A stretch of 64,000 bases of DNA from Candidatus Rifleibacteriota bacterium (GCA_012517355.1 JAAYVD010000110.1:1-64000), one strand, 5' to 3'; shown: positions 4,144-63,451, numbered from the stretch's first letter. Program-made: numbers and translations. The notes: a model not told the origin generated them from the sequence alone.

Positions 4144-4217
4144 TAGCCCCAGCGGGACTCGAACCCGCGCTCTCAGCCTTGAGAGGGCTGCGTGTTAGCC
4201 GGTTACACCATGGGGCC
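4144..4217 (-). tRNA. tRNA-Glu (anticodon CTC)
   Basis: Minus-strand reading GGCCCCATGGTGTAACCGGCTAACACGCAGCCCTCTCAAGGCTGAGAGCGCGGGTTCGAGTCCCGCTGGGGCTA folds as a cloverleaf. Acceptor GGCCCCA/TGGGGCT; anticodon loop CTCTCAA; T-loop TTCGAGT. CCA is not encoded. Confidence 0.85.
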
Positions 4218-4223
4218 ATAGAG

Positions 4224-4294
<71 letters not shown>

Positions 4295-8639: not shown

Positions 8640-8982
8640 CGCGATCCTCCCGCGGCAAGTGGGGAAGCGATCCCCCTGGGTCCATTATGGAACAAGTCTG
8701 GGCCGGACACAACCCGCCGGGTGCCCCTGCCGATCGGATGCCGGCAGGGCCCCAGGCGCCATGGGGGGTGGCGCGAAGCGCCAGTGGCGATCAGAACGCA
8801 TGAACCGCCCGCCATTCCCCCAGAGCGATCCGGGCATTCCTGATGATCAGCGGTTCCGGAAGACCTCTCCCCCGCCAGGAAGTCTGACCGGAGCGGAACG
8901 GCAAACCGTTCCGGTGTTCAAAGAGGAAAAAACTGCCCGCCTGTCCGGAGGGGGGTGGCGGCCGGCACCCCCGGACCCGACG

Positions 8983-12855: not shown

Positions 12856-14823
12856 CTACCGGTTGGTGGCCGGGATCCTGGCCGTGGCGGCCTGCCCGGC
12901 CTCGATCACCTGGTTCCAGAAGGCCTGGTAATCCTCCCAGCCGTTCGCGGCGGCGTGCGCGGCCGCCCGTTTCGCCTCGTCCAGCAGGGCGGCGAGGGCC
13001 GGGGCGAGGTTGGTCAGGGCGGGGTGGGCGGCGAGGGTGGCGGCCGGCGGCGGGGCCTGCCCGGCCAGGAAGCGGACGTCATCGCGCAGGATCTGGCGGG
13101 TCTGGTTGTCGGTGCGGAACACTCCCTGCCAGTCAACCACCTGGGCGGCGTGGAACAGCCATTCCTGCTCGGGGGACAGGCCGCGTGCGGCCAGGACGCG
13201 GAAGGCGTTCAGGCGGGCGGTGGTGGAGGCGGGGTCGGCCATCGCCCGGGTGAGCCATGCTTCGAGGCGCGGGAAGAAGGCCCCGGCCGCCAGCCTCATC
13301 GCCGGCGAGTCGGTGGCCAGGAGGGTGCGTTCGAGCAAGGGGAAGCGGTCGAGGGCGGGGGGAAGCGAGGCTGGGTCGCTGGCGGTGGCGAAGAAGCCGA
13401 TGGCTTCCTGCAGAAGGGGCGAGTCTTCCGACCCGGGGGAGGAGAGGACCTCGGCCTGGTAGACGGCCGCCGCATCGACCGGCCGGCCGGCCAGCGGCAG
13501 GAGGCGGAGGGCGTTCCAGCGAAGGGCGCGGTTGGCCTCGTCGGTCGTCGCCAGGGCCTGCTCCAGGAGGGGGCCAAACCGGGCCAGGCAGTGGCTGGCG
13601 ATGAAGGCGCGGGGCTCGTCCATTCCATCATCGGGGGGGTAGTTCCGCAGGAAGTAGTCCATCGTTTCGACGAACCCGGGGTCGGCGGTGAAACTGGCGG
13701 GCTCGAAGGCGGCGCGGGCGTGCATGAACAGGACGCTCTTGGGGCCGTTGATGCCCGTGCGGTGGTAGAACCGGGCGATGCGCTCGATGGTGGAGGGCCG
13801 GGTCTTCTGCTCCTCGGCCAGGCGATCCAGCAGTTCCTCGGCCTGGCGCTTGCCGGCGAAGCCTTCCTCGGCGAGGGTCTGGGCCTCGGCCAGGGTGACC
13901 TCGGCCTCGAGGTCGGGCAGGGGCCCGAGGGAGCCGAACCGGGTGCGGTAGTCGTCGAGGAGTTCCCGGGCGGCCGAGGCCTGGTGGCGGTCGAGCGACT
14001 GGCGGACGGCCATTTCGAGGCTGCGATTGAGCAGCTCGAGCCCCTGGGCGTGGTTGGGGGAGTCGGCCAGGAGCTGCGAGACGGCGGTGAGGGCCCGGCG
14101 GGGTTCGCCGGTGTTGAGGGCGCGGTTGGCCTCGAGGAGCTGGGGCGGGATGGAAGCCTTCCAGGTCCAGAGGATGGCCAGGCAGGTGGCCAGGGCGAGG
14201 GCGGTGACCAGGATGACCACCGGCAGGGGAAGAGTGGGCGCGGGGGCGGGGGCGTTCAGGCTCATCTTCTGCTGCTGGCTGGCCAGGGCTTTCTGGAACT
14301 GCTCGGAATCGAGGTCCTGGACGACCCGGTAGATCTTCAGGGCCTCGGGGACCCCCTTCAGTCGGAACTCCCCGACCAGGCTGGTGGGGACCTCCTGCTT
14401 GTTCATGGCCAGGTAGGTGGCCTCGGTGAACCAGATCTCGTTGCCCTCGGTGATGTGCTCGACGCGCGAGGCGATGTTCACCGCCTCGCCCAGCACGTCG
14501 CCGTCGGTGAGGGAGACCTCGCCGGTGTTGATGGCGACGCGGATCTCGATCCGTTCCTCGACGGGAGCGGTGCGGTTGTAGTCGCGGAGGCGATCCTGCA
14601 TCATCAGGGAGCACAGGACGGCGTTGGTCGGGCTGTCGAAGGTGAGCAGGAAGGCGTCGCCGATGGTCTTGACCAGGGTCCCCTCGTAGCGGGCGATGAT
14701 CGGCCGCAGCAGGGCGTCGTGCTTTTCCCGCAGCTTGACCGCGAAATCGCGGCCTCCCTGCGAGGTGCGCTCGGTGAACCCCTTGATGTCGGTGAAGACG
14801 ACGCTCAGCAGTCGTGACGGCAT
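12856..14823 (-). CDS. class III adenylate/guanylate cyclase with a TM segment and C-terminal helical-repeat region
   Basis: Start at MPSRLLSVVFTDIKGFTERTS (ATG 14821-14823, GGAGAGAG ribosome-binding site). The cyclase-homology domain has a FTDIKGFT metal-binding motif. A 10-bp gap separates it from the downstream Tim44/TerB gene. Confidence 0.75.
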   Translation of the reverse strand: MPSRLLSVVFTDIKGFTERTSQGGRDFAVKLREKHDALLRPIIARYEGTLVKTIGDAFLLTFDSPTNAVLCSLMMQDRLRDYNRTAPVEERIEIRVAINTGEVSLTDGDVLGEAVNIASRVEHITEGNEIWFTEATYLAMNKQEVPTSLVGEFRLKGVPEALKIYRVVQDLDSEQFQKALASQQQKMSLNAPAPAPTLPLPVVILVTALALATCLAILWTWKASIPPQLLEANRALNTGEPRRALTAVSQLLADSPNHAQGLELLNRSLEMAVRQSLDRHQASAARELLDDYRTRFGSLGPLPDLEAEVTLAEAQTLAEEGFAGKRQAEELLDRLAEEQKTRPSTIERIARFYHRTGINGPKSVLFMHARAAFEPASFTADPGFVETMDYFLRNYPPDDGMDEPRAFIASHCLARFGPLLEQALATTDEANRALRWNALRLLPLAGRPVDAAAVYQAEVLSSPGSEDSPLLQEAIGFFATASDPASLPPALDRFPLLERTLLATDSPAMRLAAGAFFPRLEAWLTRAMADPASTTARLNAFRVLAARGLSPEQEWLFHAAQVVDWQGVFRTDNQTRQILRDDVRFLAGQAPPPAATLAAHPALTNLAPALAALLDEAKRAAAHAAANGWEDYQAFWNQVIEAGQAATARIPATNR

Positions 14824-14898
14824 GTTCTCTCTCCCGGGCGGGGATCCGCTCGGGAGTAGTGTAACACAGGAACCGGGCAGAGGGGGGGCCTGGTCAGG

Positions 14899-15052
14899 GC
14901 GAACGAAACCCTTGGAAACCCTGTCAGAGCGGACGGAGTTCCGCTCCTCCCGACCACCCCGCCAGGGGCCATCGGCCCCTGGACCCCTTTTTTCTGCCTG
15001 CCGAACGCGGAGCGTTCGGCAGGCGGGCCGCCCGCTTCGCGAGCCGACCAGG
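14899..15052. repeat. repeat family B (~150 bp structured element), copy 1
   Basis: Contains hairpins CCAGGGGCCATCGGCCCCTGG, GCCGAACGCGGAGCGTTCGGC and GGAGCGGA..TCCGCTCC. An inverted copy lies at 60437-60578. Confidence 0.6.
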
Positions 15053-15146
15053 CCGTGTGTCTCTGTTGACCATGCGGATGCCAACCTGGCATTTGCCCTG
15101 GGGGCCTGGTCGGGTCGGACCCGGAAGTGAAGATGGACTCACGGGA

Positions 15147-16121
15147 TCAGCGCAGGGGAGGTAGAAGGGTGTCGGACCAGGCCAGGCCGAACCGGGCGTA
15201 GAAGGCGGCGATGACCGCCGGTCGGCGGGCGACGGTTCCCCGGCAGAAGACGGTGACGATCCGCTGAGACGCGCCCGTGCGGCCGAACCCGGCGAACCAG
15301 ACGGCGCCGTCGTGGGTGCCCGTCTTGCCGAACAGGGCAACGGCGGGGTCGGGGCTGGGCCAGCGCAAGGCCTCGACGAGGGTGTCCCGCACCCCGGCGG
15401 GGTCGGGCAGGCGGCCGGTGGCCAGGCGTTCGAGGAAGGCCTGCTGCTGGCGGGGGGTGATCCGGAGCCTCCCGCCCTTGACGACGGGGGTCCAGTCCCT
15501 GCCCAGCCAGCCGGCCAGGGCATGGGTGGTGGCGTAGCCGCTGCGGCTGAGAAACTCCTCGATGGCCGGGCGGCCCGCCCGGGGAGCGGTCTCTTGGAAG
15601 AACGCGTTGCTGGAATAGAGCAGCGCCTGGTGCAGGTCGAGGGCGAAGGTGCCGGTGCCCAGGTAGGGGTCGTGGCAAGCGAGGCGCGTCGAGGAAGCGA
15701 CCACGCCGTGCTCGAGGGCCACCCAGGCGAGGGCGATCTTGAAAGTGGAGGCGGGGCAGAAGGGCCGGTCGGCGAGGGCGGGGTTGCCGGCGACCACCCG
15801 GGCGGGCTCCCCGTCAGAGCTTTCGAGGATGACGAAATCGGCGGTGGGAAGAGCGGCGGCCTTCTTGCCCGGCGCGGGACCGGAGTTTTGCGCCGCCATT
15901 CCTGGCGGCAAGGAAGCGCTGCCGACCTCTTGTCGGCCGGCTCGAGGCCTGGAGACCGCTCCTTCCGTCGATGAGGGGGCTTTCCTGCCCCGACCTCCGG
16001 CCTCCTGCCGGTCGGGCTCCGGTGGGGGGGCGGCCCTGGCCAAGCCGGGAACGGTGGTCAGGAACAGGACGAGGGACAGGAGGGCAAGGGCGGCGGGGCG
16101 TGGATGGTGGGCGGGGTTCAC
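15147..16121 (-). CDS. penicillin-binding/beta-lactamase-fold protein (class D or BlaR-sensor-like transpeptidase fold)
   Basis: Motifs STFK (S-x-x-K), SSN and KTG are present. GTG start at 16121 (VNPAHHPRPAALALLSLVLFL, signal-peptide-like) lies directly after the pqiB stop. Alternative start MAAQNSG at about 15898. Confidence 0.6.
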   Translation of the reverse strand: MNPAHHPRPAALALLSLVLFLTTVPGLARAAPPPEPDRQEAGGRGRKAPSSTEGAVSRPRAGRQEVGSASLPPGMAAQNSGPAPGKKAAALPTADFVILESSDGEPARVVAGNPALADRPFCPASTFKIALAWVALEHGVVASSTRLACHDPYLGTGTFALDLHQALLYSSNAFFQETAPRAGRPAIEEFLSRSGYATTHALAGWLGRDWTPVVKGGRLRITPRQQQAFLERLATGRLPDPAGVRDTLVEALRWPSPDPAVALFGKTGTHDGAVWFAGFGRTGASQRIVTVFCRGTVARRPAVIAAFYARFGLAWSDTLLPPLR

Positions 16122-17581
16122 GGCAGTTTCTCCGGCAACAGGACGACGCGGGCGGGGCGGCCGGCCTCCAGGTGGAGCAGGCCGAGCACCTTCCCGTCGG
16201 CCAGGGCGAGGACGGCCGCCCCGTGCCAGGCGGGTGGCAGGCCCAGGGCGGGGTCGACCAGCCAGGAACCGTCGGGGGCCGCTGTCAGACGCGATGCCTG
16301 CAGAGGGAGGGGCGGGGTCTGCGGGTCGCCCACGGCACAGGCGTCTTCGGGGGCGGTGGGATGCCGCCGGCGTCCGTCCGGCCAGGCCGTGGGCAGGGTG
16401 CCGGCCGCCGGGTCGGTCAATCGCAGGAAGGGGACGGCCTCGCCTGATGGGGCCGGGGCGATCCGCCAGGTCCGGCCCAGGCCCTGGATCGGCAGGGGCG
16501 AGCCGTTGCCCGCATCGACGGCGAGGTCGGCGGGGCACAGGAGACCGCCGGCGAGGGGCAGCGCCCAGGCGCGGCGGACGTGCTGCTCGGTCCACAGGCC
16601 CGCCAGCCGGGACTCGGTCCAACTGGTCTGCACCCGCACCAGTTCCGGCAGCGGGGTGCCGGGAGGCAGCAGGCGGTCGCCCAGCCACAGGGCGGGCTTC
16701 CAGGCGAGCCATTCGGGTTCGGGCCTGGCGTGCAGGGGGAACCGGTGGCCCGGCTTCACCTCCGACCCGGCCGGGTCGGGCGTGGCCAGGCAGATGCCGC
16801 CGGCCAGCACGGTCTGCAGGGATTCCATGTCGAGGGTCAGGCCCCGCAGGAGGCCGAGATCGAAGGCGAGGCCACTGGCGTTCCAGAACCGGGAGTTGTC
16901 CCGGACGAGGCCGGCGAACCGGGGCTCGACCAGCACCCGGACGTCGACCCCCACGGCATCGGGGGCGAGGCCGACGGCGAGCACCGCGCCGACCTGGCAC
17001 TGCCGGAACAGGATGGGGGCCCCGGGCCGCAGGCTGCCGCGGGAGCCGGCCTGCAGGGTGATCTCCAGGCCACCGGGCGGGGCCTCGGCGGGCGGGGCCT
17101 CCTCTTGGCCGATGAACTCCGTCCGGGGCGGCCCTTCCCCGGGAAGGACTCCGATGTAGCGCGGCCCGATCAGGGTGTCCAGTCCTTGCACCCCGTACAG
17201 GCCCGCCTGGGGGTGGACGATCCAGAAGGCCGATCCCTGGGCGGTCAGGCCCCGGTAGGCGTTCTCGATCTGCAGACGGAGGTCGACCCCGCGCAGGTCT
17301 GGGGACAATCGCACCTCGCCCACCCGTCCCACGTCGATGCCCCGGAACTTGACGGCGTCACCCGTCTTGATGCCGTGGCCGGCGCGGAACTGGACACGCA
17401 CGGTCAGGGGTTTCCGCCCCAGGGAGGCGATGCCCAGGCCGGCCACCAGGAAGAGGGCGGCCACGGGCAGCACCCACAGCCGTGTCGAGGGCAGATCGCG
17501 CAGAAGGGTGGCCCGGGGAAAAGGGGGGGTGGAGGTTCCGGCCGCTTCGGGGGCGGTTCCGCCGGAGGGTGATTCAGTCAT
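16118..17581 (-). CDS. pqiB: MCE-domain protein (PqiB/MlaD family)
   Basis: N-terminal TM helix followed by repeated MCE-like segments (VRVQFRAGHGIKTGDAVKFRGIDVGRV...). Overlaps pqiA by 8 nt. Confidence 0.7.
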   Translation of the reverse strand: MTESPSGGTAPEAAGTSTPPFPRATLLRDLPSTRLWVLPVAALFLVAGLGIASLGRKPLTVRVQFRAGHGIKTGDAVKFRGIDVGRVGEVRLSPDLRGVDLRLQIENAYRGLTAQGSAFWIVHPQAGLYGVQGLDTLIGPRYIGVLPGEGPPRTEFIGQEEAPPAEAPPGGLEITLQAGSRGSLRPGAPILFRQCQVGAVLAVGLAPDAVGVDVRVLVEPRFAGLVRDNSRFWNASGLAFDLGLLRGLTLDMESLQTVLAGGICLATPDPAGSEVKPGHRFPLHARPEPEWLAWKPALWLGDRLLPPGTPLPELVRVQTSWTESRLAGLWTEQHVRRAWALPLAGGLLCPADLAVDAGNGSPLPIQGLGRTWRIAPAPSGEAVPFLRLTDPAAGTLPTAWPDGRRRHPTAPEDACAVGDPQTPPLPLQASRLTAAPDGSWLVDPALGLPPAWHGAAVLALADGKVLGLLHLEAGRPARVVLLPEKLP

Positions 17582-18227
17582 GGGCGGCCTCGTTCCAGAT
17601 GGAGTGCGGGTCGTAGCAGGCGGAGGCGGTCAGGCTGAGGGCCACGCACAGGGTGAAGAGAGCCGCCCCTTCCCCCGGCTTGACCTCGAGGAGGTTGCCC
17701 AGTTTGACCGCCGCCACCAGGACGGCGACGAGGAGGACGTCGAGCATCCCCCACCGGCCGACCAGTTCGATGAACCGGAAGGACCCTGCCCGGAACTTCG
17801 GGGAGAGGGGCAGGAACCGCCCCGAGATCAGCAGCAGCCCCGCCAGCTTGGCCAGGGGAAAGACGAACGAGCAGAAGAAGACGATGGCAGCCAGCACCAG
17901 GTGGCCGTCCGCCCACAGCTCCACGCAACCGCGCAGGATGCCGGTCTCGTGGACATGGCCGAACCGCTCCAGGTGCAAAACCGGGAGCCAGACGGCCAGG
18001 GGGAACAGGATGAGGGCGGCCAGGGCGCAGGCCGCGGTGCGAGCGCGCCGCCGGCGGTCCTCGCCGGGCGGGGGAAAGGGGGTGGCGCAGCGGACGCAGG
18101 CCCAAAGAGCGGGGGTGGCCCCCGAACCCGAACCTTCCGCCTGGCGGGCGGAAGGGACGAACTGGATGAGGCCGCAGCAGGGGCAGGCGCGCAGCCCTTC
18201 GGCCGGCGGGCCTCCCGCCGGGGTCAT
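17574..18227 (-). CDS. pqiA: PqiA-family integral membrane protein (paraquat-inducible protein A-like)
   Basis: CPCCG...CVRC zinc-ribbon-like N-terminus followed by TM helices. 4-nt overlap with the upstream outer-membrane gene. Confidence 0.65.
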   Translation of the reverse strand: MTPAGGPPAEGLRACPCCGLIQFVPSARQAEGSGSGATPALWACVRCATPFPPPGEDRRRRARTAACALAALILFPLAVWLPVLHLERFGHVHETGILRGCVELWADGHLVLAAIVFFCSFVFPLAKLAGLLLISGRFLPLSPKFRAGSFRFIELVGRWGMLDVLLVAVLVAAVKLGNLLEVKPGEGAALFTLCVALSLTASACYDPHSIWNEAAHD

Positions 18228-33775: not shown

Positions 33776-33898
33776 AGGCGTGGTCTTTCCCCTCCGGGAA
33801 GGGCCGTCACCAGGGAGGGCTTTCCTCCGGCCCCCCCGGGGCGGGGGGAAAGCGGGTGTGCTACACTGGCGGAACCAGAACCTGCCAAGGAGTCGCAC

Positions 33899-35371
33899 AT
33901 GAACGGGCTTTCCGAGCTGTACCGGCCTTCCCTTTCCCTGCTGACCGACCTGTACCAGTTGACCATGGCGTATGGTTACTGGAAGACGGGGACGATGGAA
34001 AAAGAGGCGGTGTTCAACCTGTTTTTCCGCAAGAACCCGTTCCAGGGCGGGTTCACGGTGGCGGCAGGCCTCAGCTACGTGCTCGATTTCGTGCGGAACT
34101 TCCGGTTCGTGGAGGCGGACACCGCGTTCCTGGCGACGCTGAAGGGGAACGACGGCCAGCCGCTGTTCGACGCGGGGTTCCTCGACTACCTCGGCAAGAT
34201 GGCCTTCTCCTGCGACATCGACGCCATCCCCGAAGGGACGGTGGTCTTCCCGCACGAGCCGCTGCTGCGGGTGCAGGGGCCCCTGGTGCAGTGTCAGTTG
34301 CTGGAAACGGCCCTGCTGAACATGATCAACTTCCAGAGCCTGATCGCCACCAAGGCGGCGCGGATCTGCCTCAGCACGCAGGGCGAGCCGGTCCTCGAGT
34401 TCGGGCTGCGGCGGGCGCAGGGCATCGACGGGGCGCTGGCTGCCAGCCGGGCCGCCTACATCGGCGGGGCGTCGGCCACCTCCAACGTGCTGGCCGGCAA
34501 GCTGTTCGGGATCCCCGTGCGGGGCACCCACGCACACAGCTGGGTGATGTCGTTCGACACCGAGCTGGAGAGCTTCCAGCAGTATGCGGCGGCGATGCCC
34601 AACAACTGCGTGTTTTTGGTCGACACCTACGACACGCTCGACGGGGTGCGCAACGCCGTCAAGGTCGGCGCCTGGCTGCGGGAGCGGGGCCACGAGATGA
34701 TCGGGGTGCGGCTCGACTCGGGCGATTTGGCCTACCTCAGCCGCGAGGCGCGCAAGATCCTCGATGGGGGCGGGTTCCCCAAGGCGGCGATCTTCGCCAG
34801 CAACGACCTCGACGAGGACATCATCAGCAGCCTGAAGCAGCAGGGGTCGGCGATCGCGGTGTGGGGCGTCGGCACCAAGCTGGTGACCGGCCACGAGCAG
34901 TCGGCGCTGGGCGGGGTCTACAAGCTGGTGGCCATCCGCCGGCCCGGCCAGCCGTGGGAGTACAAGGTCAAGCTGTCGGAACAGGCGATCAAGGTGTCGA
35001 ACCCCGGCATCCTGCAGGTGCGGCGGTTCAGCGCGGGGGCCGAGTGCATCGGCGATCTGATCTTCGACACCGGTCTCGGGGCGCCGTCCGAACCGGTGAT
35101 GGTCGATCCGATGGACCCGACCCGGCGCAAGAAGATGCCGGCCGGGGCGCCCACCGAGGACCTGCTGGTGCCGGTGGTGCGGCAGGGGAAGGCCGTCATG
35201 AAGACGCCGCCGATGGAGGAGATCCGGGCGCGGACGCTGGCGCAGGTGGCCCGCTTCCATGGAGGGGTCAAGCGGTTCGTGAACCCCCACAGGTATCCCG
35301 TGGGGCTCGAGGTGAAGTTGCACGATTTGAAGACGCGCCTGATCCTGAAGGCGCGCGGTTTCGCCGAGTAG
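33899..35371 (+). CDS. pncB: nicotinate phosphoribosyltransferase
   Basis: 490 aa; N-terminus LTDLYQLTMAYGYWK and central HSWVMSF motif typical of PncB. Confidence 0.9.
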   Translation: MNGLSELYRPSLSLLTDLYQLTMAYGYWKTGTMEKEAVFNLFFRKNPFQGGFTVAAGLSYVLDFVRNFRFVEADTAFLATLKGNDGQPLFDAGFLDYLGKMAFSCDIDAIPEGTVVFPHEPLLRVQGPLVQCQLLETALLNMINFQSLIATKAARICLSTQGEPVLEFGLRRAQGIDGALAASRAAYIGGASATSNVLAGKLFGIPVRGTHAHSWVMSFDTELESFQQYAAAMPNNCVFLVDTYDTLDGVRNAVKVGAWLRERGHEMIGVRLDSGDLAYLSREARKILDGGGFPKAAIFASNDLDEDIISSLKQQGSAIAVWGVGTKLVTGHEQSALGGVYKLVAIRRPGQPWEYKVKLSEQAIKVSNPGILQVRRFSAGAECIGDLIFDTGLGAPSEPVMVDPMDPTRRKKMPAGAPTEDLLVPVVRQGKAVMKTPPMEEIRARTLAQVARFHGGVKRFVNPHRYPVGLEVKLHDLKTRLILKARGFAE

Positions 35372-35395
35372 AAGGGGCGAATCGGGGGTAGAAAA

Positions 35396-35640
35396 ATGAG
35401 GGAGGGAAGGAGCGAGAGAAGGAGGGAGGGAAGGAGCGAGAGAAGGAGCGAGGGAAGGAGCGAGAGAAGGAGCGAGGGAAGGAGCGAGAGAAGGAGCGAG
35501 GGAAGGAGCGAGAGAAGGAGGGAGGGAAGGAGCGAGAGAAGGAGGGAGGGAAGGAACGAGAGAAGGAGGGAGGGAAGGAGCGAGGGAAGGAGCGAGGGAA
35601 GGAACGAGGGACGAGGAAAAGGGGAAGCGGAGAAGATGGG
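35396..35640 (+). repeat. polypurine tandem repeat, 12-bp period (AGGGAAGGAGCG/AGAGAAGGAGCG), about 19 copies
   Basis: The plus strand is purine-only over about 240 bp, with AAGGAG iterated in every unit. Confidence 0.85.
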
Positions 35641-35870
35641 AAATGGGAGAGCGGGAATCTGGACCTTGGCGGAAAAGAGCTTCCAGAATTGATCTCAGGG
35701 GGGGGAGATAGGCTGGGGACCGGAGAGGGAGGGAAAGAAGCGGCAGGGAAAGAGACGGCGCCGGGGTTGCCCACGGCGCGCCGGTTGGTCGCGGATCAGC
35801 GCCGAATGCGCCGGTGGGTTGAGGATCAGCGCAGAATGGTGGAGCAGCGCAGAATGCGCCGGACGATGGG

Positions 35871-39627: not shown

Positions 39628-39732
39628 TGACTTCCTCCTCAGTTTCACTGCTCGTATGAGCTATCCCTGTTGACCATTATGGAACATGGGGGCATTTCGT
39701 TTCAACCTGGACGAGGCTGGATTCCCAAGCGG

Positions 39733-39796
39733 CGTGGAACAGGGGTTTCGCGCCGGCATTCCTGGCGACAAAGGGGTGGGCCGACGTCGTGTCGGC
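39733..39796 (+). repeat. repeat family A copy (degenerate)
   Basis: GGTTTCGCGCC..GGCATTCCTGGCGACAAAGGGGTGGGCCGACGTCGTGTCGGCC matches the family A consensus. Confidence 0.55.
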
Positions 39797-39888
39797 CTGT
39801 CCCCGTGAGAGGCGGGGAACGACTGGGTCGCGCCGTCTCCGTGGGCAAGGGGGCCCTTTGGCCAATCGGCCGGCCGGATCGCCACGCA

Positions 39889-42637: not shown

Positions 42638-43264
42638 ATGAGCGGGCGGCGGGGCGCGCCGGCGGGGACGGGGGACGCCTCGGCTGCCGGCAACCTGCGG
42701 AGCGGGGATCCGACCAACGGGTGTTTCGTGGCCCTCGATTTCGAGACGGCCGATCACGGCCGGGACAGCGCCTGCGCCCTCGGGCTGGTCAAGGTGTCGC
42801 CCGGCCGGCCGGTGGAGCGGCTGTATCACCTCATCCGGCCGCCGCGGCCACGCATCCTCTTCACCTGGGTGCACGGCATCGCCTGGGCGCACGTGGCCGA
42901 CCAGCCGACCTTCGCGGAACGATGGCCCGAGGTCGAGGGGTTCCTGGCGGGCGCGGATTTCCTGGTGGCGCACAACGCGCCGTTCGACCGGGGGGTGCTG
43001 CAGGCCTGCTGCCAGGCGGCCGGGGTGGCGCCCCCCGCGGTTCCCTTCTTCTGTTCGGTGCAGTTGTCGCGGCGGACCTGGAACCTGACCAGTGCCAGCC
43101 TGCCCACCGTCTGCCAGTTCCTGGGCTTTTCGTTGCAGCACCACCACGCGGCCGCCGATGCCGAGGCGTGCGCCATGATCGTGCTGGCGGCGGCGAAGGA
43201 ACGGGGGGCGCTGGGATTGCCCTGGCAGCCGCTGAAACCTCCCCGCCCGACGGCACACCCATGA
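42638..43264 (+). CDS. DnaQ-like 3'-5' exonuclease (DEDDh family)
   Basis: FVALDFETAD (Exo I), VAHNAPFDRGVL (Exo II) and HHAAADAEA (Exo III with His). GGAGG ribosome-binding site. Confidence 0.8.
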   Translation: MSGRRGAPAGTGDASAAGNLRSGDPTNGCFVALDFETADHGRDSACALGLVKVSPGRPVERLYHLIRPPRPRILFTWVHGIAWAHVADQPTFAERWPEVEGFLAGADFLVAHNAPFDRGVLQACCQAAGVAPPAVPFFCSVQLSRRTWNLTSASLPTVCQFLGFSLQHHHAAADAEACAMIVLAAAKERGALGLPWQPLKPPRPTAHP

Positions 43265-43401
43265 CCGCACCTGCCTTCCCCACCGGAGTCAGACCATGAC
43301 CGTGTCTTCCTTCCCCACCGATGTCAGATCATGACCGCGCCTTCCTTGGCTTCGCCCGAGTCAGGCCATGACCGTGCCTTTCCCACGGCCGGGCGTCAGC
43401 C
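43260..43401 (+). repeat. tandem direct repeat, 35-37 bp period, four copies, each beginning CATGACCG
   Basis: The units start at 43260, 43295, 43330 and 43367 (a fifth, partial, at 43402). They overlap the exonuclease stop codon and the 5' end of the HD gene. Confidence 0.8.
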
Positions 43402-43402
43402 C

Positions 43403-44251
43403 ATGAACGCCCCTGTCTCTCGGCCGTCCTCCCAGGCCTCGCCGGCCGGGGGGGCGCCCCCGGCCGCCCTGCCCATCGAACAGGCGATCGGCCTGCAGCG
43501 CTGGTTCGACGCCTACGTGGACCGGTTCCGGCAGCCCTCGGGAGGCCTCGAACCGATGCTCGAGCTGAAATACTTCCATTGCGGGCGGGTGGCCGCGGTG
43601 GCGGAAGGGATCGCGGCCGATCTCGGCTGGCCGGCCGACGAGGTGCGGCTGGCCCGGACGGTGGGCCTGCTGCACGACGTGGGGCGGTTCTCCCAGTTCC
43701 GACAGTTCGGCACCTACCACGACCCCGTGTCGGTCGACCACGGGCAACGGGGGTGCGAGGTGCTGGCCGCCGAGCGGGCCCTGGACGGCTGCCCCGCCGG
43801 CCTGGCCCGCCTGATCCGCGGCACGGTCCGGCTGCACAACGCCCGGGCCCTGCCGCCCTCCCTGCGGCCGGCGGCCGGCCGTTTCGTGCGCCTGGTGCGC
43901 GATGCCGACAAGATCGACGCCCTGCGGATCTTCGACGAGGCGATCGAGACGGGCACCCTGCGGGACAACCCCGAGATCTGCTGGAACATGCCGCGGCACG
44001 GTCCGCTCAGCCCGCGCCTCCTCGAGGACGTCGGGCAGGGAAGGATCGGCTCCTACGCCGAGGTCCGATCGGTCGACGATTTCCAGCTGGTGCTGCTGTC
44101 GTGGGCCTTCGACCTGCAGTTCGGCCCCTCCCGTCGCCGCGCCCGCGTCGCCGGCTATTTCGACCGCATGGTCGGCCGCCTGCCCGACGGCCCTCTCGTG
44201 CGGAGGATCGCCTCCCACGTCTTCCAGGCGCTGGAAGGGGATCCCGGCTGA
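43403..44251 (+). CDS. HD-domain metal-dependent phosphohydrolase
   Basis: HCGRV...LLHDVGR (H...HD motif) ...DADKIDAL. Start set at the first ATG after the repeat array (MNAPVSRP); the ORF-track start at 43331 lies inside the repeats. Confidence 0.6.
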   Translation: MNAPVSRPSSQASPAGGAPPAALPIEQAIGLQRWFDAYVDRFRQPSGGLEPMLELKYFHCGRVAAVAEGIAADLGWPADEVRLARTVGLLHDVGRFSQFRQFGTYHDPVSVDHGQRGCEVLAAERALDGCPAGLARLIRGTVRLHNARALPPSLRPAAGRFVRLVRDADKIDALRIFDEAIETGTLRDNPEICWNMPRHGPLSPRLLEDVGQGRIGSYAEVRSVDDFQLVLLSWAFDLQFGPSRRRARVAGYFDRMVGRLPDGPLVRRIASHVFQALEGDPG

Positions 44252-44850
44252 CCTGGCCGGCACGAGGCGGGAATTTCGCCTTGGCCGCCCCGGCGCCCGC
44301 CGCGGAAGGACCATCGTGCGCATCGCCAGGGTACGGCCGCCGCGAGGCCGGCCAGCTTCCCTTGCCGCCCTGGACGGCCGGGCGAAACCGCTCGAACCAC
44401 CTCTGCACGCCTGGGAGCTCGCTTGCCGCCCTGGCTGGCCGGGCGAAACCGCCGTTGCGGGCATCGTCCTGTCCATCGATGGGGCGGAGCGGGGGCCGGG
44501 GTGCGGGTCGGGCCCGACCTGCATCGCGGGATCCCCACCTCGCCAGTTCGGGAAACGGGTCCCGACGGACGATCCCCGGGCGTTGGGTGTCGGAGGGAGC
44601 GGTCGCTCTCGGGATCAGGAAAGGGAGTAGGGAAATTTCTGATGCGGCCTGGGTCGGCCAGGGATGCCGCCGAGCCGGGGGTACCGGGAGGAAATTCCTT
44701 GAGTTTCTGGCCGTGGGGGCATAAAATACCAACCGGTCCCATGGTGCGCCCCCCGGATCGAACCCGAGGCCGCCACGGCGTAAGGCTTTGAAGGACCCTC
44801 TCCCTGACGGGAGTTGGAATTTCATGACGCTGAAGTCGTCTGAAGGAGGA

Positions 44851-46295: not shown

Positions 46296-49200
46296 TCACC
46301 CCTCGGGGGGAGGGGGATCCGCCGGGGGTTTGCGGGACAGGTATTTCTGGTACAGGGTCGAAACCAGGGTCAGGACGAGGGACAGGCCGATCAGCGAGGC
46401 GACCCGGAACAGGCCGCCGAGCTGCCAGAGGTCGTAGAGGAAGACCTTGATGATGGCCACGGTCAGCAGCACGAGGCTGCCGAGACGGGCGGTGCGCGAG
46501 CCGAGGCGGATGCCGATCATCAGCAGGACGAGGCCGAAGACGGTCCAGGCGAGGGAGAAGGTCATGTCGCTGGCCAGGCTGCCGGCGAAGGCGAAGGTGA
46601 GGGTGCCGGCGGGGCCGAAGGCGTCGGCGATCTCGATGTTGACCAGGAAGAAGGCGAGGACGGTACCGAGGGTCCCGAAGACCCGTGACAGGGGAAGGCT
46701 TTCGAGGCCGAAGAGCAGGTCGTCGCGCTCTTCCGGTGGCGGTTCCGGGTCGGCGGCCGGCCGGCGGGTCAGCCAGGAGGCGGTGAGCAGGCAGGCGGCG
46801 ACGAGGCCGAAGGCGTAGAGATACCAGTTGAGGATGGGAAGCCCTTCCCGCGGGTGATACGCAAAGATCGCGGGGTTCAGGCCGAGCCGGGCGAAGGCGA
46901 CCAGCAGCAGGATGGTGCCGAGGGTCCGCCACGGCGGGGCCGGGACCTGCCGGAACAGGTGGAGGAGAGTGGTTCCCTCGATGGCCCAGCCGATCGTCAG
47001 CCATTCTCGGTCGAACTGGAGGGGGAAGAAGATGGTGACGAAGAACAGGCCGACCCCGCAGAACATCTCGGGAATCCAGTCGGCAAGGGGCGACCCGGCC
47101 CGCAACCGGGCGGGCAGCCGGGGCCGGGCGGCCAGGTAGGGGGTGGCCATGGCGAGGGGCAGGAGGCCGATCAGGGCCGACCCCAGGCCCAGGGAGAGGG
47201 AATGGTAGAGCAGGGTGGCGTGGAGGAGGCCGCTGGCGGCGGCGATCAGCCAGGGCCAGTGGCGGTCGGCGAACTCAGTTTTCCCGAGAAAGGGGAAGGC
47301 CAGGAACAGGGCGTGGAAGGCGGCGAACCAGGTGGTGGCCCAGAACCAGGCGTCGGGGGTGAAGGAGAACCGGAACCAGGCGATCTCGACGATGCCGGCG
47401 CTGATGAAGGTGACCAGGAGGAGTTCATCGACCCGGGTGGTGCGGACCAGGTGCATCAGCATGCCGCAGAAGACGGCGGCCAGGAGGAAAACCGGCGTGG
47501 GGTTGGGCTGCGGCAGGCGGGTGATGACCACCAGCAGCAGGCTGAACGGCAGGAACCCGGACAGGGCGGGCAGCATCAGGGCGGTGGAGGGGTCGAGGAG
47601 GGCGGGGACGGCTGGCCGGGCGGTTTCGGCCGGGATGGTCTCCGTGGTGGGGGCATCCCTGGGGTCTGACGTGGCAGCCGGGGCCGGGCGGTCGCGCCAG
47701 GTGTCGGCGAACAAGCTCCAGAGGTAGAAGGCGAGGGCAAAGGCGGCATCGACGCCGAGGAAGAAGGGGATTTCGGCGGCGGTCAGCCGGAGCACCCAGA
47801 TGGCCAGGGCCCCGATGGTGAGCAGGAGCATGGTGATTCCCATCCAGGCGAGGGCGGCCAGCCAGGCGATGCCGACGCCGATGGCGTTGAGGAGCATGAC
47901 CGCAGGCCAGACGTAGAAGGGAACGGCCGCGTGCGAGAAGACGGGGATCATGACCAGCAGCATGATCACGGGGGGGAACAGGTAACCGAGCAGGTAAGGC
48001 TCCGATCGGGGCCGCAGGTGCTGCAGAAGGAGGGGAAGGGCGGCGTGGAAGGCCGCGAACAACAGGAAGAAGAACAACCCCGCCGGCAGGAGGTCAGGGT
48101 GGCCGGCCAGGGCGGTGCCGGTCCAGTGCAGCAGGGTGAGGAAGACCAGGACGCTGCCGGCGAAATGGAACGGCCGCGCGTCGTCCTCGGCGACGGTCTG
48201 CCAGACCAGCAGGAGGTCGAGCAGGAACAGCGCGGTGAACACCAGCACGGGGCTGCTCCCCATGGCGGGGAAGGCGACCAGCAGGAACCCGGGGAAGAGC
48301 ATGGCGCCCAGGGCCATGACGCGGGCGGCGAGGGAGAAGGAGACCTGGGGGATACCCCTCCGGCGGACGCCGGCCCAGGCGAGAGCGAAGGCAGCGGGGA
48401 AGAACAGGAACGCCGCGAATCCCCAGAAGGGGTGGTCGGGCGAGAACCAGGTCAGCGTCCAGAGCCACAGCAGGGCCAGGCCGCCGAATGCCCCGTGGGC
48501 ATGGGTCATGGCCGCGCCGGGGTCGCGGAGGCTCTGCCAGGCGAGGATGCCCTGCAGCAGGAGCAGCAGGGTGAAGCCCTGCAGGGGGCTGTTCCCCGCG
48601 TAATAGAGGGAATAGCCGACGAACAGGAGGGAGAGCAGGGGGATGGCCCGGGGCGGGAAGTCGAGCTGGGGGGCGGGTTCCTTGCCCCTGCCGAGGAAGT
48701 GGTCGGCGCCGAGGAAGAACAGGGGGATGCCGATCGTCACCGCCCCCGCCATCAACAGGTTGGTTCCGGCGTATTTTCCCATCCAGTACCAGTTGATCAG
48801 GAAGGTGACGACGCTGCCGGCCAGGTGGCAGGTCTCGGCCTCGCGGTCGCTCTTCGCCCGCCAGGCGATGGCGGTTTCGAGGGCGAGCAGCAGGGCGAAG
48901 GCGAAGACGGGCTTGCCGCCGATCTCGGCGAAGGAATACAGCCAGGCGACGAACGGCAGCGACAGCAGCGGGGCCCAGCGGGCGGCCGGGGAGGCCACTT
49001 CGCGCCGTTCCCCCCAGCCCGGCAGGTGCGAGATGCCGATGAAGTAGAACGGCCAGAACAGGAACAGGGCGTAGCCCGTCCAGGCGTTGGCGGTGGTGAA
49101 GTAGCGGTTGGTCCAGACCCAGAGCAGCAGGAAGGTGACGAGGCCACCCGCGGACAGCAGGGTGGTCGATCCGCGGGAGAGGCGGGCCACGGCCAGCAGC

Positions 49201-52200
49201 AGCAGGTTGCCGAACAGGAGGCAGGCGGTGATCAGCAGGGCGGGGGCCGCGATGGCGGGGAAGGAGAGCAGGAAGGCGGGCAGCGAGAAGGCGAAGAGGG
49301 GGAACAGCCGGGCCGGGTCGAAGAACTGCGGCTGGTCGCGGCGGTCGGGGCCGGACCACCACCAGGTTCCGACGTAATAGGCGGAGAAGCCGGCGAACAG
49401 CAGGACGAAGGTCAGCACCCGATCCTCCTGGAAGCGGAGGCCGGTGAACAGCCACAGCAGGGCGAACGTGGCGAAGGCGGCGGGCAGGTGCGTCCCCGAC
49501 CGGGCGGCCTCTTGGCGATGCGCGAAACTCTCGTTTCGCGCCGCCATCCGTGGCGACAAAGGGGTATGGCCGACTTCGTGCCGGTCGGGTGAAGCGTCGG
49601 GCGGGTCGAGGAAGACGGGGACGGTCGTCAGGCCGCACAGAAAGAGCTGGAGGGCGAACAGGGTGCCCGGGAAGCCCGCGCTGCCGGGGACGGTGCAGAG
49701 AAAGCCGACGAGGGACATGGCCAGGAGCGGGAAGAAGCGGGCTGGCCAGAAGACGGGGAAGGCGCTGCGGGCGGTGGGCGGCGCGAGGAGGCCGATCCCG
49801 CCGAACCAGGCGGCGAAGGCGGCGACCACCAGGGCGAAGGAGCCGGCCATGCCTTCCCCGACATGCTGGAGGGCGAACAGCCAGAGGAGGGCGAGGGTGA
49901 AGACGGCGGCGGGCAGGTGGGCGCCGGGGCCGTCGGCGGCGGTCGGGGCGCGGAACAGGGGGAGGGCCGCCAGCAGGCACAAGAAGACCTGCAGGGCGAG
50001 GAGGGGGGCGACGGGGAGGTTTCCGGGGGCGAGGAGACAGAGATACCCGCCGTAGGACATGGCCAGCAGGGGGAAGAGCCAGGCGGGGGCGGACAAGGAG
50101 GACCGGGCGCGGGTTTCCGGGGGGGCGAAACACCAAGTTCCCAGATACCAGGTGGAGAACCCGCCGAACAGCCAGGCGAAGAGCGGCACGAGGTCCGCCT
50201 GGTGACGGGCCAGGACGGTGGCCCACAGCAGGAGGAAGGTGAGCCCCGAGCCGTAGCAGTGCGCGTCGCCGCGGTCCGGGCGCGCCGAGGGGAGGAACAG
50301 GGGCAGGGCGGCCAGCAGGCAGAGGAGGGCCTGCAGGGCGACGAGGGCGCCCGGGGCGGCGACCTCGGACGGGAAGACGGCGATGTAGCCGACGAACAGC
50401 ATCGCCCCCAGCGGGAAAAAGCGGGCGGGGTCGAAAACCCGTGCCAGGTCGCGGCGGGGTTGGGAGAGCAGCGCCCAGACGGCGCTGTGGTAGAGGGCGA
50501 ACCCGGCGATGGCCAGCAGGAAGGGCCGGACGGGGCCGCGCAGGACGAAGCCGGCCAGGCCGAAGGCCTCGGGGCCGGACCCGGTCTGGAGGGGGGTCCG
50601 GCTGAACGCCACGAGACTCAGGAAGGTGAGGACGGCGCCCGCCAGGTGCGCATCGGCCGGGCTTTCCCCGGCCGGGTCGGAACCGTCGTCCGACCCGGTG
50701 GCGGTCTGGGAGCCGAGAAAGAGCGGGAAGGAGCCGAGCAGGCAGAGCAGGAACTGGACGAGGAACACGGCGAAGGGGGAAGCGGCCGCCTCGGGCCAGG
50801 TGCAGAGCCAGGTGACGAACAGCATCGAGAGGGGCGGGTAGACCCGCGCCGGCACCGCCAGGGCGGCCGTCTCGTTCCCCCGCCGCCGGGCCACGTGGAC
50901 GGTCGCGGCGAAGAAGGCGGCGAACCAGAGGAGGGCGAAGGAACCGGTGGCGAGTTTCGTCCAGTCGAAGAATTTCGCGAACCAGGCCAGCTCGGTGAGG
51001 GCGGTGCCGACCGCTCCGAGCTGGACGAGGAATCCCCATTCCTTGCGCAGGGCGACGGCCAGCAGGCCGACGTTCAGGAAGGTGAGGTAGGTGAACAGTC
51101 CGAGGGGGTTGTCCTGGCCCGTCGAGACGATGGCGGGGGTCAGGAACCCGACCACCATGCCCAGGATGGCCACGAACCGCGAGTCGAGCGCGACCGACAG
51201 GACGAAAGCGGCGCCGGTCACCAGGCACATGCCGCCGAAGGCGGGCAGCGCGGGGAACACGTCGTAGACCCAGGCGGCGATGATGTCCGCGTAGAGGATG
51301 GAGACGCCGGCCGCGCAGAGGGTTTCGACGGTCGTGGCCAACCCTTTGGGCCGGAGCCACAGGCCGCCGGCGATCAGGGCCAGGCCGGCCAGGAAGCCCA
51401 GGGCCAGGCGCATCTCGAAGGGGATCAGGTTGTTCTCGATGGCGTGTTTGACGAACAGGGACATGCCGAGGAACGCGCCGAAGCCGGCCACCCAGGCGAA
51501 GAATTTCACCCCCAGGAACATCTCGAAATCGAGGGTGGGCCTGGCCTCGCGGCCGGCGGCCGGGGAAGGGGCCTCGCGGTCGGGCGGCGTGGCTTCGGCC
51601 ACGTGGTTGGGCGGCGTGATCGCGGCCTCGCGGTCGATCGGCGTGATCGCGGCCTCGCGGTCGATCGGCGTGATCGCGGCCTCGCGGTCGATCGGCGTGA
51701 TCGCTGCCTCGCGGTCGGAAGGAGTGATCGGGGTCTCGCGGTCGGGCGGCGTGGCTTCGGCCACGTGGTTGGGCGGCGTGATCGTGGTCTCCCGGTCGAT
51801 CGGCGTGATCGCTGCCTCGCGGTTGATAGGCGTAATCCTGGTCTCGCCGTCGACAGGCGTGCTTGCTGCCTCGCGGGAGGGAGGCGTGGGGGATGGGGGG
51901 GGCGGTTCGGGGATGTTCGGGGCATCATCGGTCGCGGCGGCGGGGGGGGAGGTTTCGCGTTGTCGCCAGGCGGGGTAGATCTGGCTGGGCAGTTCGCAGG
52001 CATCCGGGCCCGGAACGGGGAAAGTGGCAACGGGAGGGGTTTCCGGGGAGGCGGGAGAGGTGGATGCCGGGGAGAGGGCGGTCGGGGCATCGTTCGCGGG
52101 AAGGCCGGGCGGTGGGGCGGATGAGGGGGAAGAGGCTGCCAACGGCGTGGATGGGCCGGTGGTCGGAGGGACGACGGGGAGCGTGGGTTCCGTCGCGGTT

Positions 52201-52616: not shown

Positions 52617-52965
52617 CACCAACCCTCCCAATGTGGCCGACCTTCGTGGGCCGGCCCCCTCAAGGATACCTCACAGGCCCACTTCTGCCTAACGGTTCTG
52701 TCTCCCTGGAGATCCCCGGTCAGGGCGGCGGGGAGCCCGGAAGCGTCCCGGGTTTCTCCAGTCCTGATGCGGCCAGCCGTCCGGAGACCCCCGCGGGCCG
52801 GGAAGCCTGACCGGTCAGGGAGACGGTCGGGGGTGCCCGTCGGGCCGGCACGGAAGGGGCGCATACCGGAGGTGACCGGCCGCGGATCACCGCCGTGGGG
52901 CGCGGATCGGGTGACCGGCCTCCGGAAAGCGATCCAGGATCAGGGAATGGGTAAAGCCAGAAGAC

Positions 52966-53847
52966 CTATTCCGCGGGAAGGGAGGCGAGAGCCTCCCCGA
53001 CGCCGGCGGCGAGGGCTTCCGTCATCGCCTGTTTCCCGGCTTCCGAGCTGATGAAGGCCGCGTCCACGGGGTTGTTGAGGTAGATCATTTCGACGGTGAG
53101 GGTCGGCACCTCGCTCCAGATCGAACCGATGAGGGCGCCGCCGTTTTTGGCGCCGACGGCGGTCGAGCGGTCGGTCTTCAACCCGCCGTCCGGAAAGACG
53201 CCTGCCAGGCGGCGGGCCATCCCGCGGTGGAAAGCCTCGGCGGCCATCCGGCTGCGGGTGATCACGAACTGGGAGGGGCCGGTCCGGCCGGCGTTGGTTC
53301 CCTGCGCATCGGGGTAATAGATGACGAAGCCGCTCCGGCCGGGCGCGTAGTCGCAATGGAGGCGCACCACGAGGGCCGCGCGGGCCCGGTTGGCGAACTC
53401 GGCCCGCTCGCGGTTGGTCATCATCCGCATCTTCTCCGCCCGGTTGACCAGGACGTGGATCCGGGGGTCGGCGGCCAGCCGCGCGGCCAGGGCCTGTCCG
53501 ACCTCCCAGTTGACGTCCACCTCGCGCAGGCCGTTGGCGTTGGCGCCGCCGCTGATTTCGGAAGGGTGGCCGGGGTCGATGACCACGGTGTGGCGGGAGT
53601 CGCCGTCGGGCATCCCCGCCGGTCCGCCGGGTGTGCCGCCCGTGCCGGTTGCCGGGCCTGCAGCCGAGCCCGCAGCCGAGCCCGCAGCCGAGCCCGCAGC
53701 CGAGCCCGCAGCCGAGCCCGCAGCCGAGCCCGCAGCCGAGCCCGCAGCCGTGCCGGCTGGCTCCTTCCCAGCGCCCAGGACCAGGCTTCCCGTCCCGGCC
53801 AGAACGATCAGCATCACCACCAGAACCCATTCCCTGCCTGTCATCAT
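52966..53847 (-). CDS. N-acetylmuramoyl-L-alanine amidase (Amidase_3 family) with a (GSAA)7 linker
   Basis: Start MMTGREWVLVVMLIVLAG (ATG 53845-53847, AGGAGG ribosome-binding site). Catalytic region HTVVIDPGH...E...VRLHCDYA. Confidence 0.7.
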   Translation of the reverse strand: MMTGREWVLVVMLIVLAGTGSLVLGAGKEPAGTAAGSAAGSAAGSAAGSAAGSAAGSAAGSAAGPATGTGGTPGGPAGMPDGDSRHTVVIDPGHPSEISGGANANGLREVDVNWEVGQALAARLAADPRIHVLVNRAEKMRMMTNRERAEFANRARAALVVRLHCDYAPGRSGFVIYYPDAQGTNAGRTGPSQFVITRSRMAAEAFHRGMARRLAGVFPDGGLKTDRSTAVGAKNGGALIGSIWSEVPTLTVEMIYLNNPVDAAFISSEAGKQAMTEALAAGVGEALASLPAE

Positions 53848-53926
53848 GCGCGTTCCTCCTGTGTCGATCGATCTCGGCCATCCGTTCCCCGCGGTCGGTG
53901 GAGAGCCGGACGGCCCCTTTGCGGGG

Positions 53927-53994
53927 CGCGAAACGGGCGTTTCGCGCCGCCATCCGTGGCGGCCAAAAGGCCCTTCCGACATCCTGTCGGTCGG
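53927..53994 (+). repeat. repeat family A copy (canonical)
   Basis: CGCGAAACGGGCGTTTCGCG CCGCCATCCGTGGCGGC ... CCGACATCCTGTCGG: three consecutive hairpins. Confidence 0.6.
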
Positions 53995-55846: not shown

Positions 55847-55955
55847 CGGACCACCACGACGCGGCCGGGTTCCTGGCAGGGCCCCGGCCGCGTTTCGCGT
55901 TGCCGGGGGTCCCCGCCCGTCGTGGCCCATCCGGGGCGGCCGGCTCCCTGGCGAA

Positions 55956-56186
55956 GGGCGAAACCCGCGCTTGGCACGGCTCTCCGTGGCGGCAAGGGGT
56001 ATTTCCGACATCCTGTCGGTCGGTCCCTTGGCGGTTCGCGAAACTGGCGTTTCGCGCCGCCATCCGTGGCGGCATAGGGGCAGTTGCGACATCCTGTCGG
56101 TGGGCCCCCTGACGATTCGCGAAACCTGCACCTCGCGTCGTTCTTCGTGGCGGTGAGGGGGGTATTTGCGATCTCGTTGCGGTCGG
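55956..56186 (+). repeat. three tandem copies of repeat family A between convergent genes
   Basis: Copies at about 55956-56022, 56036-56104 and 56117-56186, each with the CGCGAAAC..GTTTCGCG / GCCGCCA..TGGCGGC / CCGACA..TGTCGG hairpin triplet (the outer copies are degenerate). Confidence 0.6.
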
Positions 56187-56187
56187 A

Positions 56188-63338: not shown

Positions 63339-63451
63339 GGAAAGCCTCCGTTGGTGAGAATGTGGGGCCATTATGGCCGATCCCCACCTGCTTGGCAACC
63401 CACCGGCCACCCCCCGGGATCCGCGAGGAAGGCAGATGGCCCCTTGGGATG

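Follow-up and report, generated by a model that had tools for sequence, protein, structure and literature searches.

A palindromic repeat in frame between the predicted signal peptide and the class D beta-lactamase-fold domain of a Candidatus Rifleibacteriota protein

Introduction

[quoted passage not shown] RPEs occur both between genes and in frame within unrelated genes, where they keep a fixed frame and add an extra peptide at positions that spare the fold (PMC10969869). Here we describe an event of this known kind in which the repeat family, termed family A, is new. One copy lies in DNA of a Candidatus Rifleibacteriota bacterium (GCA_012517355.1, JAAYVD010000110.1:1-64000), a stretch of 64,000 nt from a 68% GC genome that is referred to below as the window and in whose coordinates positions are given. 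The host gene (15147-16121, minus strand) encodes a protein with a predicted class D beta-lactamase fold, and the repeat (15853-15940) lies between the DNA for its signal peptide and that for its catalytic domain. We hold it to be probable, with good confidence, that this copy was inserted in frame long ago and has been tolerated since, in what is probably a disordered linker of a protein translated from GTG 16121, to which it would add about 29 residues. The locus offers an example outside Rickettsia of in-frame palindromic repeats in protein-coding genes, at a site that can be compared as empty, occupied and decayed.

Family A is an interspersed palindromic repeat of the kind of repetitive extragenic palindromes (REPs) and MITEs, and was previously undescribed. 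Its likeness to RPEs is one of behaviour only, with no claim of membership: it is palindromic and lies in frame in uninterrupted ORFs, two of its roughly nine loci in the window being intragenic and alike in orientation and frame. It differs from RPEs in the length of its unit, about 81-88 nt against about 150 nt (PMC10969869), in its fold, a three-way junction plus a hairpin, and in its host, a relative of Ca. Ozemobacter with 68% GC. With MITEs such as Correia, ERIC, Chunjie and Nezha it shares small size, dispersed non-coding copies, strong structure and occasional in-frame fusion with ORFs (PMC10969869), whereas terminal inverted repeats, a readable target-site duplication and a known parent insertion sequence are missing from family A.

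Similar to REP, BIME and REPIN sequences, which are mobilised by RAYT proteins, family A forms dense local copies of GC-rich imperfect palindromes that lie just after stop codons or between the genes of a transcription unit and can build tandem arrays. In contrast to the single imperfect palindrome of 20-40 nt in those families, three palindromes make up its unit, which is two to four times as long. Moreover, family A forms no inverted doublets, its units being arranged head to tail in one orientation relative to genes, and it is not strictly extragenic, given its two intragenic copies. Mycobacterial interspersed repetitive units (MIRUs) are repeats of 40-100 nt located in operons, which run in one direction relative to transcription, are often in tandem and have lengths compatible with translation. 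They carry short ORFs overlapping the flanking genes at their stop and start codons, an arrangement that is not seen in family A.

The repeat family and its copy in the host gene

The host gene and the parts of it that bear on the repeat are the following.

15147-16121, minus strand: host gene, GTG start, 324 amino acids (aa), class-D-beta-lactamase-fold/transpeptidase-domain protein
16032-16121, minus strand: predicted signal peptide, Sec-type as read from the sequence, residues 1-30 MNPAHHPRPAALALLSLVLFLTTVPGLARA, followed by APPP
15837-16031, minus strand: 65-residue linker (residues 31-95) with much Pro, Gly, Ala and Arg, absent from the distant ortholog
15853-15940, plus strand: family A copy, with the consensus form on the plus strand and its reverse complement in the minus-strand mRNA; encodes residues 62-90, GRQEVGSASLPPGMAAQNSGPAPGKKAAA, between signal peptide and fold
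15897-15899, minus strand: ATG carried by the element (Met75), in the loop and stem of hairpin 2; start of one public gene call
15929-16011, plus strand: stretch within which lie the extra 75 nt (25 codons, ...QEAGGRGRKAPSSTEGAVSRPRAG...) absent from the close ortholog, with boundaries that are ambiguous as CCGAC/GTCGG motifs repeat

The copy in the host gene belongs to a family that recurs throughout the window. The 25-mer GTTTTGCGCCGCCATTCCTGGCGGC, found in it at 15885-15909 and followed by GCCGACCTCTTGTCGGCC at 15921-15938, has four matches with at most three mismatches in the window, compared with 0.00 expected from 100 shuffles. A family profile (nhmmer) recovers eight strong copies in the 64 kb, with E-values from 2e-16 to 6e-23 and all on the plus strand, and about five further copies are decayed. 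The same profile places the copy under study at 15855-15940 (E 7.8e-18, model positions 3-88), and a covariance model extends it to 15851-15942 (88 bits, E 1.6e-14, model positions 1-92), the fourth-ranking score in the window. The unit measures about 81-88 nt: the structured core is 78 nt long, the unit with its shared CGGNCGG ends 88 nt, and the tandem period 80-81 nt. An earlier reading of this stretch by a model that saw nothing but the DNA (below, the sequence-only reading) had proposed a palindromic family A element of about 65 bp inside the coding sequence. An in-frame repeat copy is indeed present, but that length is too short, and the start given to the element, 15876, omits the outer stem's 5' strand together with half of hairpin 1. 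The peptide quoted in the same reading is what the minus-strand frame gives, ...AGRQEVGSASLPPGMAAQNSGPAPGKKAAA... without stops. No gene-sense frame contains a stop codon in any of the 16 copies of alignment A4 (eight from the window and eight from a related metagenome-assembled genome, MAG), which is not remarkable at 68% GC.

The protein itself places the repeat outside its folded part. Pfam PF00905 is matched at residues 117-239 (E 2.4e-11); the best match among class D beta-lactamases of the PDB is 6nhs (E 2.4e-12), and alignments with OXA-10 start at host residue 96, which corresponds to OXA-10 residues 21-23. The motifs STFK (125-128) and KTG (266-268) are invariant in the orthologs. With 58.4 bits in NCBIfam bla_class_D_main, far under the cutoff of 250, the protein has the class D fold but is no established beta-lactamase. 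Residues 1-30 resemble a signal peptide, so that the element lies between signal peptide and catalytic domain, where the sequence-only reading had put it. In line with this arrangement, AlphaFold2 predicts a helix at residues 10-22, no secondary structure and a predicted local distance difference test (pLDDT) below 50 for residues 22-87, and a domain that is modelled confidently from about residue 90, with pLDDT above 85 for most of its length.

The gene order PqiA - MlaD - class-D-fold protein - adenylate/guanylate cyclase (12856-18227, minus strand; locus L008) is shared with Ca. Ozemobacter sibiricus. Such conservation suggests for the beta-lactamase-fold protein a role in concert with an envelope lipid-transport system and not one as a resistance enzyme.

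Empty, occupied and decayed sites among orthologs

Four homologs of the host protein were found (P0001-P0004), two of which show what the site looks like without the repeat and with a degraded copy of it. In P0004, from Ca. Ozemobacter sibiricus (56% identity; same PqiA-MlaD-X-adenylate/guanylate cyclase order), the signal peptide (…LLYAWPSWA) runs straight into QVLALPAGEFIILES and is joined directly to ..LALPAGEFIILES. Because no linker separates signal peptide and domain, this site can be taken, on the protein alignment, as effectively empty. In P0002, from MAG binchicken_co135_42 (84% identity), the same signal peptide and PPPEPD are followed by RPTVGTASLPPRAATRNARPAPGRKAAALP, and the underlying DNA matches the family profile (E 3.7e-6). 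P0002 and the window copy further have derived features in common, such as GGCGGCCTTC..GCGCGGGAC and AAGGAAGCG. Profile match and shared features together indicate that the two copies are orthologous and that the insertion is older than the split of the two species. The sequence-only reading had called for an alignment with orthologs, and had held that a segment shared as peptide but not as DNA would speak against a mobile repeat. The linker-less P0004 and the decayed copy in P0002 supply that alignment, and the resemblance extends to the DNA, since the ortholog segment matches the family DNA profile and further copies lie at unrelated loci.

The copy in P0002 is degraded: it has no ATG, its hairpin 2 is destroyed and its folding z-score is +1.05, i.e., no better than shuffles. 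The frame is kept, as the sole length difference between the two genes in their 5' region is one 75-nt gap (25 codons) in the pairwise DNA alignment. Identity in the linker is about 65% between these orthologs compared with 84% overall, which fits a segment that would be under weak constraint. The remaining ortholog, P0003, ends at a contig end and is uninformative on the linker. Across all four, more than 100 alignment columns, including STFK and KTG, are invariant.

This comparison also bears on the notion that the gene is decaying, a pseudogene in the making, or that the locus is an assembly chimera joined at the repeat. The fast linker agrees with decay, and repeats are classic sites of misassembly. 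Against this, the full-length ORF is intact and the catalytic motifs and the other invariant columns are kept in four orthologs; the gene order is the same on both sides in independent assemblies, and an independently assembled MAG has the same element in the same place. We therefore regard decay or misassembly as very improbable indeed.

The 25 codons missing from P0002 sit between PPPEPD and the element, and in gene sense they start with a hairpin-3-like CCGACC…GGTCGG. When compared with the 3' third of the family, the segment scores 2.4 bits (nhmmer), a value reached by none of 1000 shuffles, the best of which scores 2.2; the covariance model gives a marginal 16.5 bits at 15974-16017 (E 0.3). 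The extra 75 nt may be the relic of a second tandem unit, which recombination between repeated motifs would have removed from the ortholog.

The start codon of the host gene

The start of the host gene decides whether the element is translated at all. At 16121-16119, the GTG shares bases with the stop codon of MlaD, the gene upstream (TGA, 16120-16118), as GTGA, and a GGAG at 16133-16130 precedes the GTG by 8 nt. The close ortholog has the same arrangement of GGAG, 8 nt and start, there at an ATGA overlap. The rival candidate is the ATG within the element, at which P0001, an identical protein of 250 aa, is publicly called (MAAQNSG). If Met75 were the real start, the protein would have no signal peptide and would be cytoplasmic, and the element would lie in the 5' untranslated region and supply the start codon. 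In addition to the public call for the identical sequence, this possibility draws on ATG being a stronger start codon than GTG and on third-position GC that is, judged by eye, lower in the element region than in the rest of the gene.

Several lines of evidence speak for the upstream start. The 84%-identity ortholog has GCC at the position of the ATG and reads PRAATRN, and the AGGA ahead of Met75 directly abuts the ATG with no spacer, compared with the GGAG at -8 and the MlaD stop overlap of GTG 16121. The frame upstream of Met75 is open, a Sec-type signal peptide in that frame is conserved in P0002 and P0004, i.e., in close and distant orthologs, and the single 75-nt gap leaves the frame unchanged. 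Class D beta-lactamase-fold domains, moreover, act outside the cytoplasm. Given a signal peptide that is conserved in frame, an in-frame length difference between orthologs, an internal ATG that is not conserved and a GTG coupled to the upstream gene, translation would run from GTG through the element. Met75 is probably not a real start, and we rate the account that makes it one as quite improbable.

Of the two alternatives offered by the sequence-only reading, the first, a repeat tolerated in a disordered linker, thus gains from the conserved signal peptide, the linker-less distant ortholog and the decayed state of the same copy in the close ortholog, and further from class D homology that begins only at residue 96 and from the low pLDDT of residues 22-87. 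The second, a cytoplasmic protein starting at MAAQNSG, is disfavoured by the missing ATG, the unspaced AGGA and the well-placed GTG. The doubt that reading raised over the start has proven to be a real annotation problem, as the public call for P0001 begins at the ATG of the element. This call drops the signal peptide and would make a secreted protein of the penicillin-binding fold look cytoplasmic. Because an internal ATG is present in most family A copies (…PPRMAARN…), the same miscall may recur across the lineage.

A different peculiarity of annotation concerns locus L007 of the related MAG (266-540). The public call of the ortholog begins there at an ATG overlapping the MlaD stop, which puts about 85 residues ahead of the signal peptide. 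The real start looks to be an internal ATG at about 485 (MAGHVRIRPRPRG…), about 220 nt at this place have no counterpart in the window, and the public call is probably too long.

Structure of the element

The family A fold consists of a three-way junction, composed of a 10-bp outer stem (P1), hairpin 1 and hairpin 2, which is followed after a gap of 4 nt by a third hairpin. In the family, hairpin 1 is formed by GCGCGAAAC/GTTTCGCGC (9 bp), hairpin 2 by (GC)CGCCA/TGGCG(GC) and hairpin 3 by CCGACA/TGTCGG. The corresponding parts of the window copy are listed here.

15859-15917, plus strand: three-way junction, in which P1 pairs 15859-15868 with 15908-15917
15872-15880 with 15885-15893, plus strand: hairpin 1, GCGCGGGAC pairing with GUUUUGCGC
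15894-15898 with 15903-15907, plus strand: hairpin 2, CGCCA pairing with TGGCG
15922-15936, plus strand: terminal hairpin 3, CCGACC / TCT / TGTCGG; its mRNA strand encodes RQEVG

Among the 16 aligned copies, 85.8% of the pair cells hold standard pairs, compared with 39-47% (about 42%) when the partners are slid. The window copy (15853-15940) has 28 of the 30 model pairs as standard pairs (24 Watson-Crick and 4 G-U), its minimum free energy on the mRNA strand is -45.6 kcal/mol, and the three-way junction is recovered on both strands. Covariation across the 16 copies is barely above that of shuffled controls, and changes compatible with G-U pairing number 35 on the plus-strand form against 27 on the mRNA strand, so that neither strand is favoured. 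With covariation this slight and G-U changes neutral as to strand, the data show a DNA repeat of palindromic form and do not demonstrate selection on an RNA.

These results also weigh on the idea that the element is kept for its RNA or single-stranded DNA structure, e.g., as an mRNA stabiliser, a processing site or a translational pause, with the peptide as a by-product. The window copy is indeed among the best-structured in the window, with its 88 bits and its folding energy on the mRNA strand; compensated changes in the outer stem are common to it and to the orthologous copy; and the family runs antisense to neighbouring genes, even in an array whose orientation is flipped (see below), which suggests selection or a mechanism tied to transcription. 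However, hairpin 2 is gone from the orthologous copy, which folds like its shuffles, the G-U-compatible changes favour no strand, covariation hardly exceeds the controls, and neither an Rfam match nor a terminator-like T run was found. Thus, maintenance for structure appears improbable to us.

In the scan of the whole window with Rfam 15, family A has no match, the sole matches being two tRNAs, and on the tandem array the best Rfam match reaches 11 bits compared with a gathering score of 196. Intrinsic terminators, i.e., a hairpin with a T run, are found on neither strand within 15700-16300, and the family consensus is without a T run on either strand. No promoter consensus was found at the element. 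Nor does alignment A4 contain terminal inverted repeats, its ends being an imperfect direct repeat, CGGNCGG...CGGTCGG. These 7 nt could belong to the element or to its target, between which the empty site, at 56% identity, is too diverged to separate. An integron attC site was rejected because the core motifs misfit and the flanking genes are syntenic core genes; a CRISPR, a tRNA-like element, a terminator and an Rfam family were likewise rejected from sequence and context and from the Rfam and terminator scans.

A tolerated insertion in a linker

The best-supported account treats the repeat as selfish or neutral. According to it, one copy, or possibly a tandem pair, would have been inserted in DNA encoding the junction of signal peptide and catalytic domain, in the common ancestor of this organism and MAG binchicken_co135_42 and after the split from Ca. 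Ozemobacter. The reading frame would have survived because the family is free of gene-sense stops and the net insert is a multiple of three. Translation would start at GTG 16121, coupled to the upstream MlaD gene, and the precursor would be exported by means of its signal peptide. The element would thereby be translated into residues 62-90, within an N-terminal linker of 65 residues that is probably disordered, and it is its position outside the fold that would have made the insertion tolerable. Since then, the segment would have drifted under weak constraint, with the frame kept and the sequence and hairpins free to decay.

Several points weigh against this account. The well-kept fold of the window copy and the compensated changes in its outer stem could hint at a retained structural constraint or at a different source subfamily. 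The only public call for this exact gene, P0001, begins at Met75. At 56% identity, the empty site allows neither the exact insertion boundaries nor a target-site duplication to be read. The mobility of family A we infer from its dispersed copies, as we infer linker translation, export, disorder and the mode of insertion. Finally, low pLDDT is weak evidence for disorder when the AlphaFold2 alignment holds 5 sequences only.

A second in-frame copy in a DUF2339 protein

The host gene is not the only gene in the window to contain the repeat. The copy at 49501-49588 lies inside an uninterrupted ORF of 2124 codons (46296-52670, minus strand) with a Pfam DUF2339 match (E 7e-61). In orientation and reading frame it agrees with the copy in the beta-lactamase-fold gene, and it encodes …PDRHEVGHTPLSPRMAARNESFAHRQEAARS…. 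The DUF2339 protein contains internal repeats of about 110 residues. The unit that bears the element exceeds the closest of five paralogous units by exactly 27 aa, and the extra residues fall in a loop flanked by hydrophobic segments. Given this exact difference, the copy would be a second in-frame insertion of family A in 64 kb. An ortholog with an empty site was sought as well: a word-indexed search found none and an exhaustive search only two matches, at 29-30% identity, so that the 27-residue insertion is read from the paralogous units. Additionally, the N-terminal part of the ORF contains a tandem repeat with a 27-nt period (51490-51921), corresponding to about 16 copies of a 9-residue motif (…REAAITPID…).

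The recipients of family A would both be envelope proteins, with the repeat in a linker of a secreted enzyme in one case and in a loop of a giant membrane protein in the other. A broader proposal, which we put forward tentatively and consider unlikely, is that family A is a structured element oriented by transcription, always antisense to genes, free of stops in gene sense and with a period of about 27 codons, that spreads within the Riflebacteria-related lineage and repeatedly donates flexible segments to envelope proteins; it would be RPE-like but would have arisen independently outside obligate intracellular bacteria, with a possible role at the RNA level for its intergenic copies.

Distribution and orientation of family A

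The other copies in the window are listed below.

39713-39878, plus strand: one good (39713-39799) and one decayed (39793-39878) unit, in the spacer between two minus-strand genes
49501-49588, plus strand: intragenic copy in the DUF2339 ORF, nhmmer E 5.7e-23
53907-53994, plus strand: copy upstream of a minus-strand amidase gene (MMTGREW...), about 55 nt from its start
55937-56187, plus strand: head-to-tail triplet with units from 55937, 56017 and 56098, period 80-81 nt
63432-63519, plus strand: copy upstream of, or in a doubtful N-terminal extension of, a minus-strand tetratricopeptide repeat (TPR)/membrane gene
44251-44466, minus strand: three decayed tandem units between plus-strand genes (HD-domain protein, glutamate dehydrogenase)
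about 8724-8813, minus strand: decayed copy, from decayed-copy searches

The triplet at 55937-56187 lies between convergent genes and runs up to the stop codon (56188-56190) of the one on the minus strand, and the decayed array is recognised by the covariance model at 44251-44341 (30.3 bits, E 8e-4) and by local nhmmer matches (E 2e-5 to 2e-4). Together with loci of the related MAG, the extragenic copies fall just after stops (55937-56187; L001, L002), between same-strand genes (39713; L002) and upstream of starts (53907; L003, L004, L006).

Beyond the window, 185,579 species-representative genomes were scanned for the exact core; MAG binchicken_co135_42 alone had the family, and Pseudoroseomonas gave a chance match of 24 nt. 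JGI metagenome contigs, scanned twice for the conserved core, yielded no true member, the first scan giving nothing and the second one partial chance match, L012, which covers only hairpin 2 and part of P1. A profile search of about 9 kb of Ca. Ozemobacter found no family A copy. Three gene-sense translations of the consensus gave nothing at E<=10 against 5.8 billion proteins, a collection of a size at which no match of 27 residues can be significant. As far as these collections go, family A is specific to this lineage.

The orientation of the family is strict. At six unambiguous loci, namely the two intragenic and two inter-operonic ones of the window, L002 and L007, the consensus form lies opposite the coding strand, and no locus contradicts this rule. 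The decayed triplet at 44251-44466, flanked by two plus-strand genes, has the flipped orientation. Because this array is flipped between plus-strand genes, orientation seems to follow transcription and not simply one replichore, a suggestive result given the few loci (roughly p 0.03 or lower). A link to replication was also considered. GC skew is dominated by the coding strand, which is C-rich, with values, taken on the plus strand, of +0.05 to +0.21 in minus-strand genes and -0.06 to +0.08 in plus-strand genes, and a smaller constant positive component remains in the window; replication-linked orientation was rejected, as GC skew is not cleanly separable from the coding strand and the flipped array favours the link to transcription. 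The strict orientation of family A relative to transcription could stem from the insertion mechanism or from selection at the RNA level.

Other features of the window

Several further repeats and genes were recorded in the window. Just after the membrane anchor encoded by the N-acetylmuramoyl-L-alanine amidase gene, a tandem repeat with a 12-nt period (53628-53769) encodes (AAGS)n, and a second repeat of 12-nt period (35347-35670) lies at or just past the 3' end of the plus-strand ORF 33776-35371. Direct repeats at 43248-43414, three copies of about 60 nt with spacings of 35 and 72 nt at the junction of an RNase T-like and an HD-domain gene, are unrelated to family A. Two adjacent tRNA genes are located at 4144-4294 on the minus strand.

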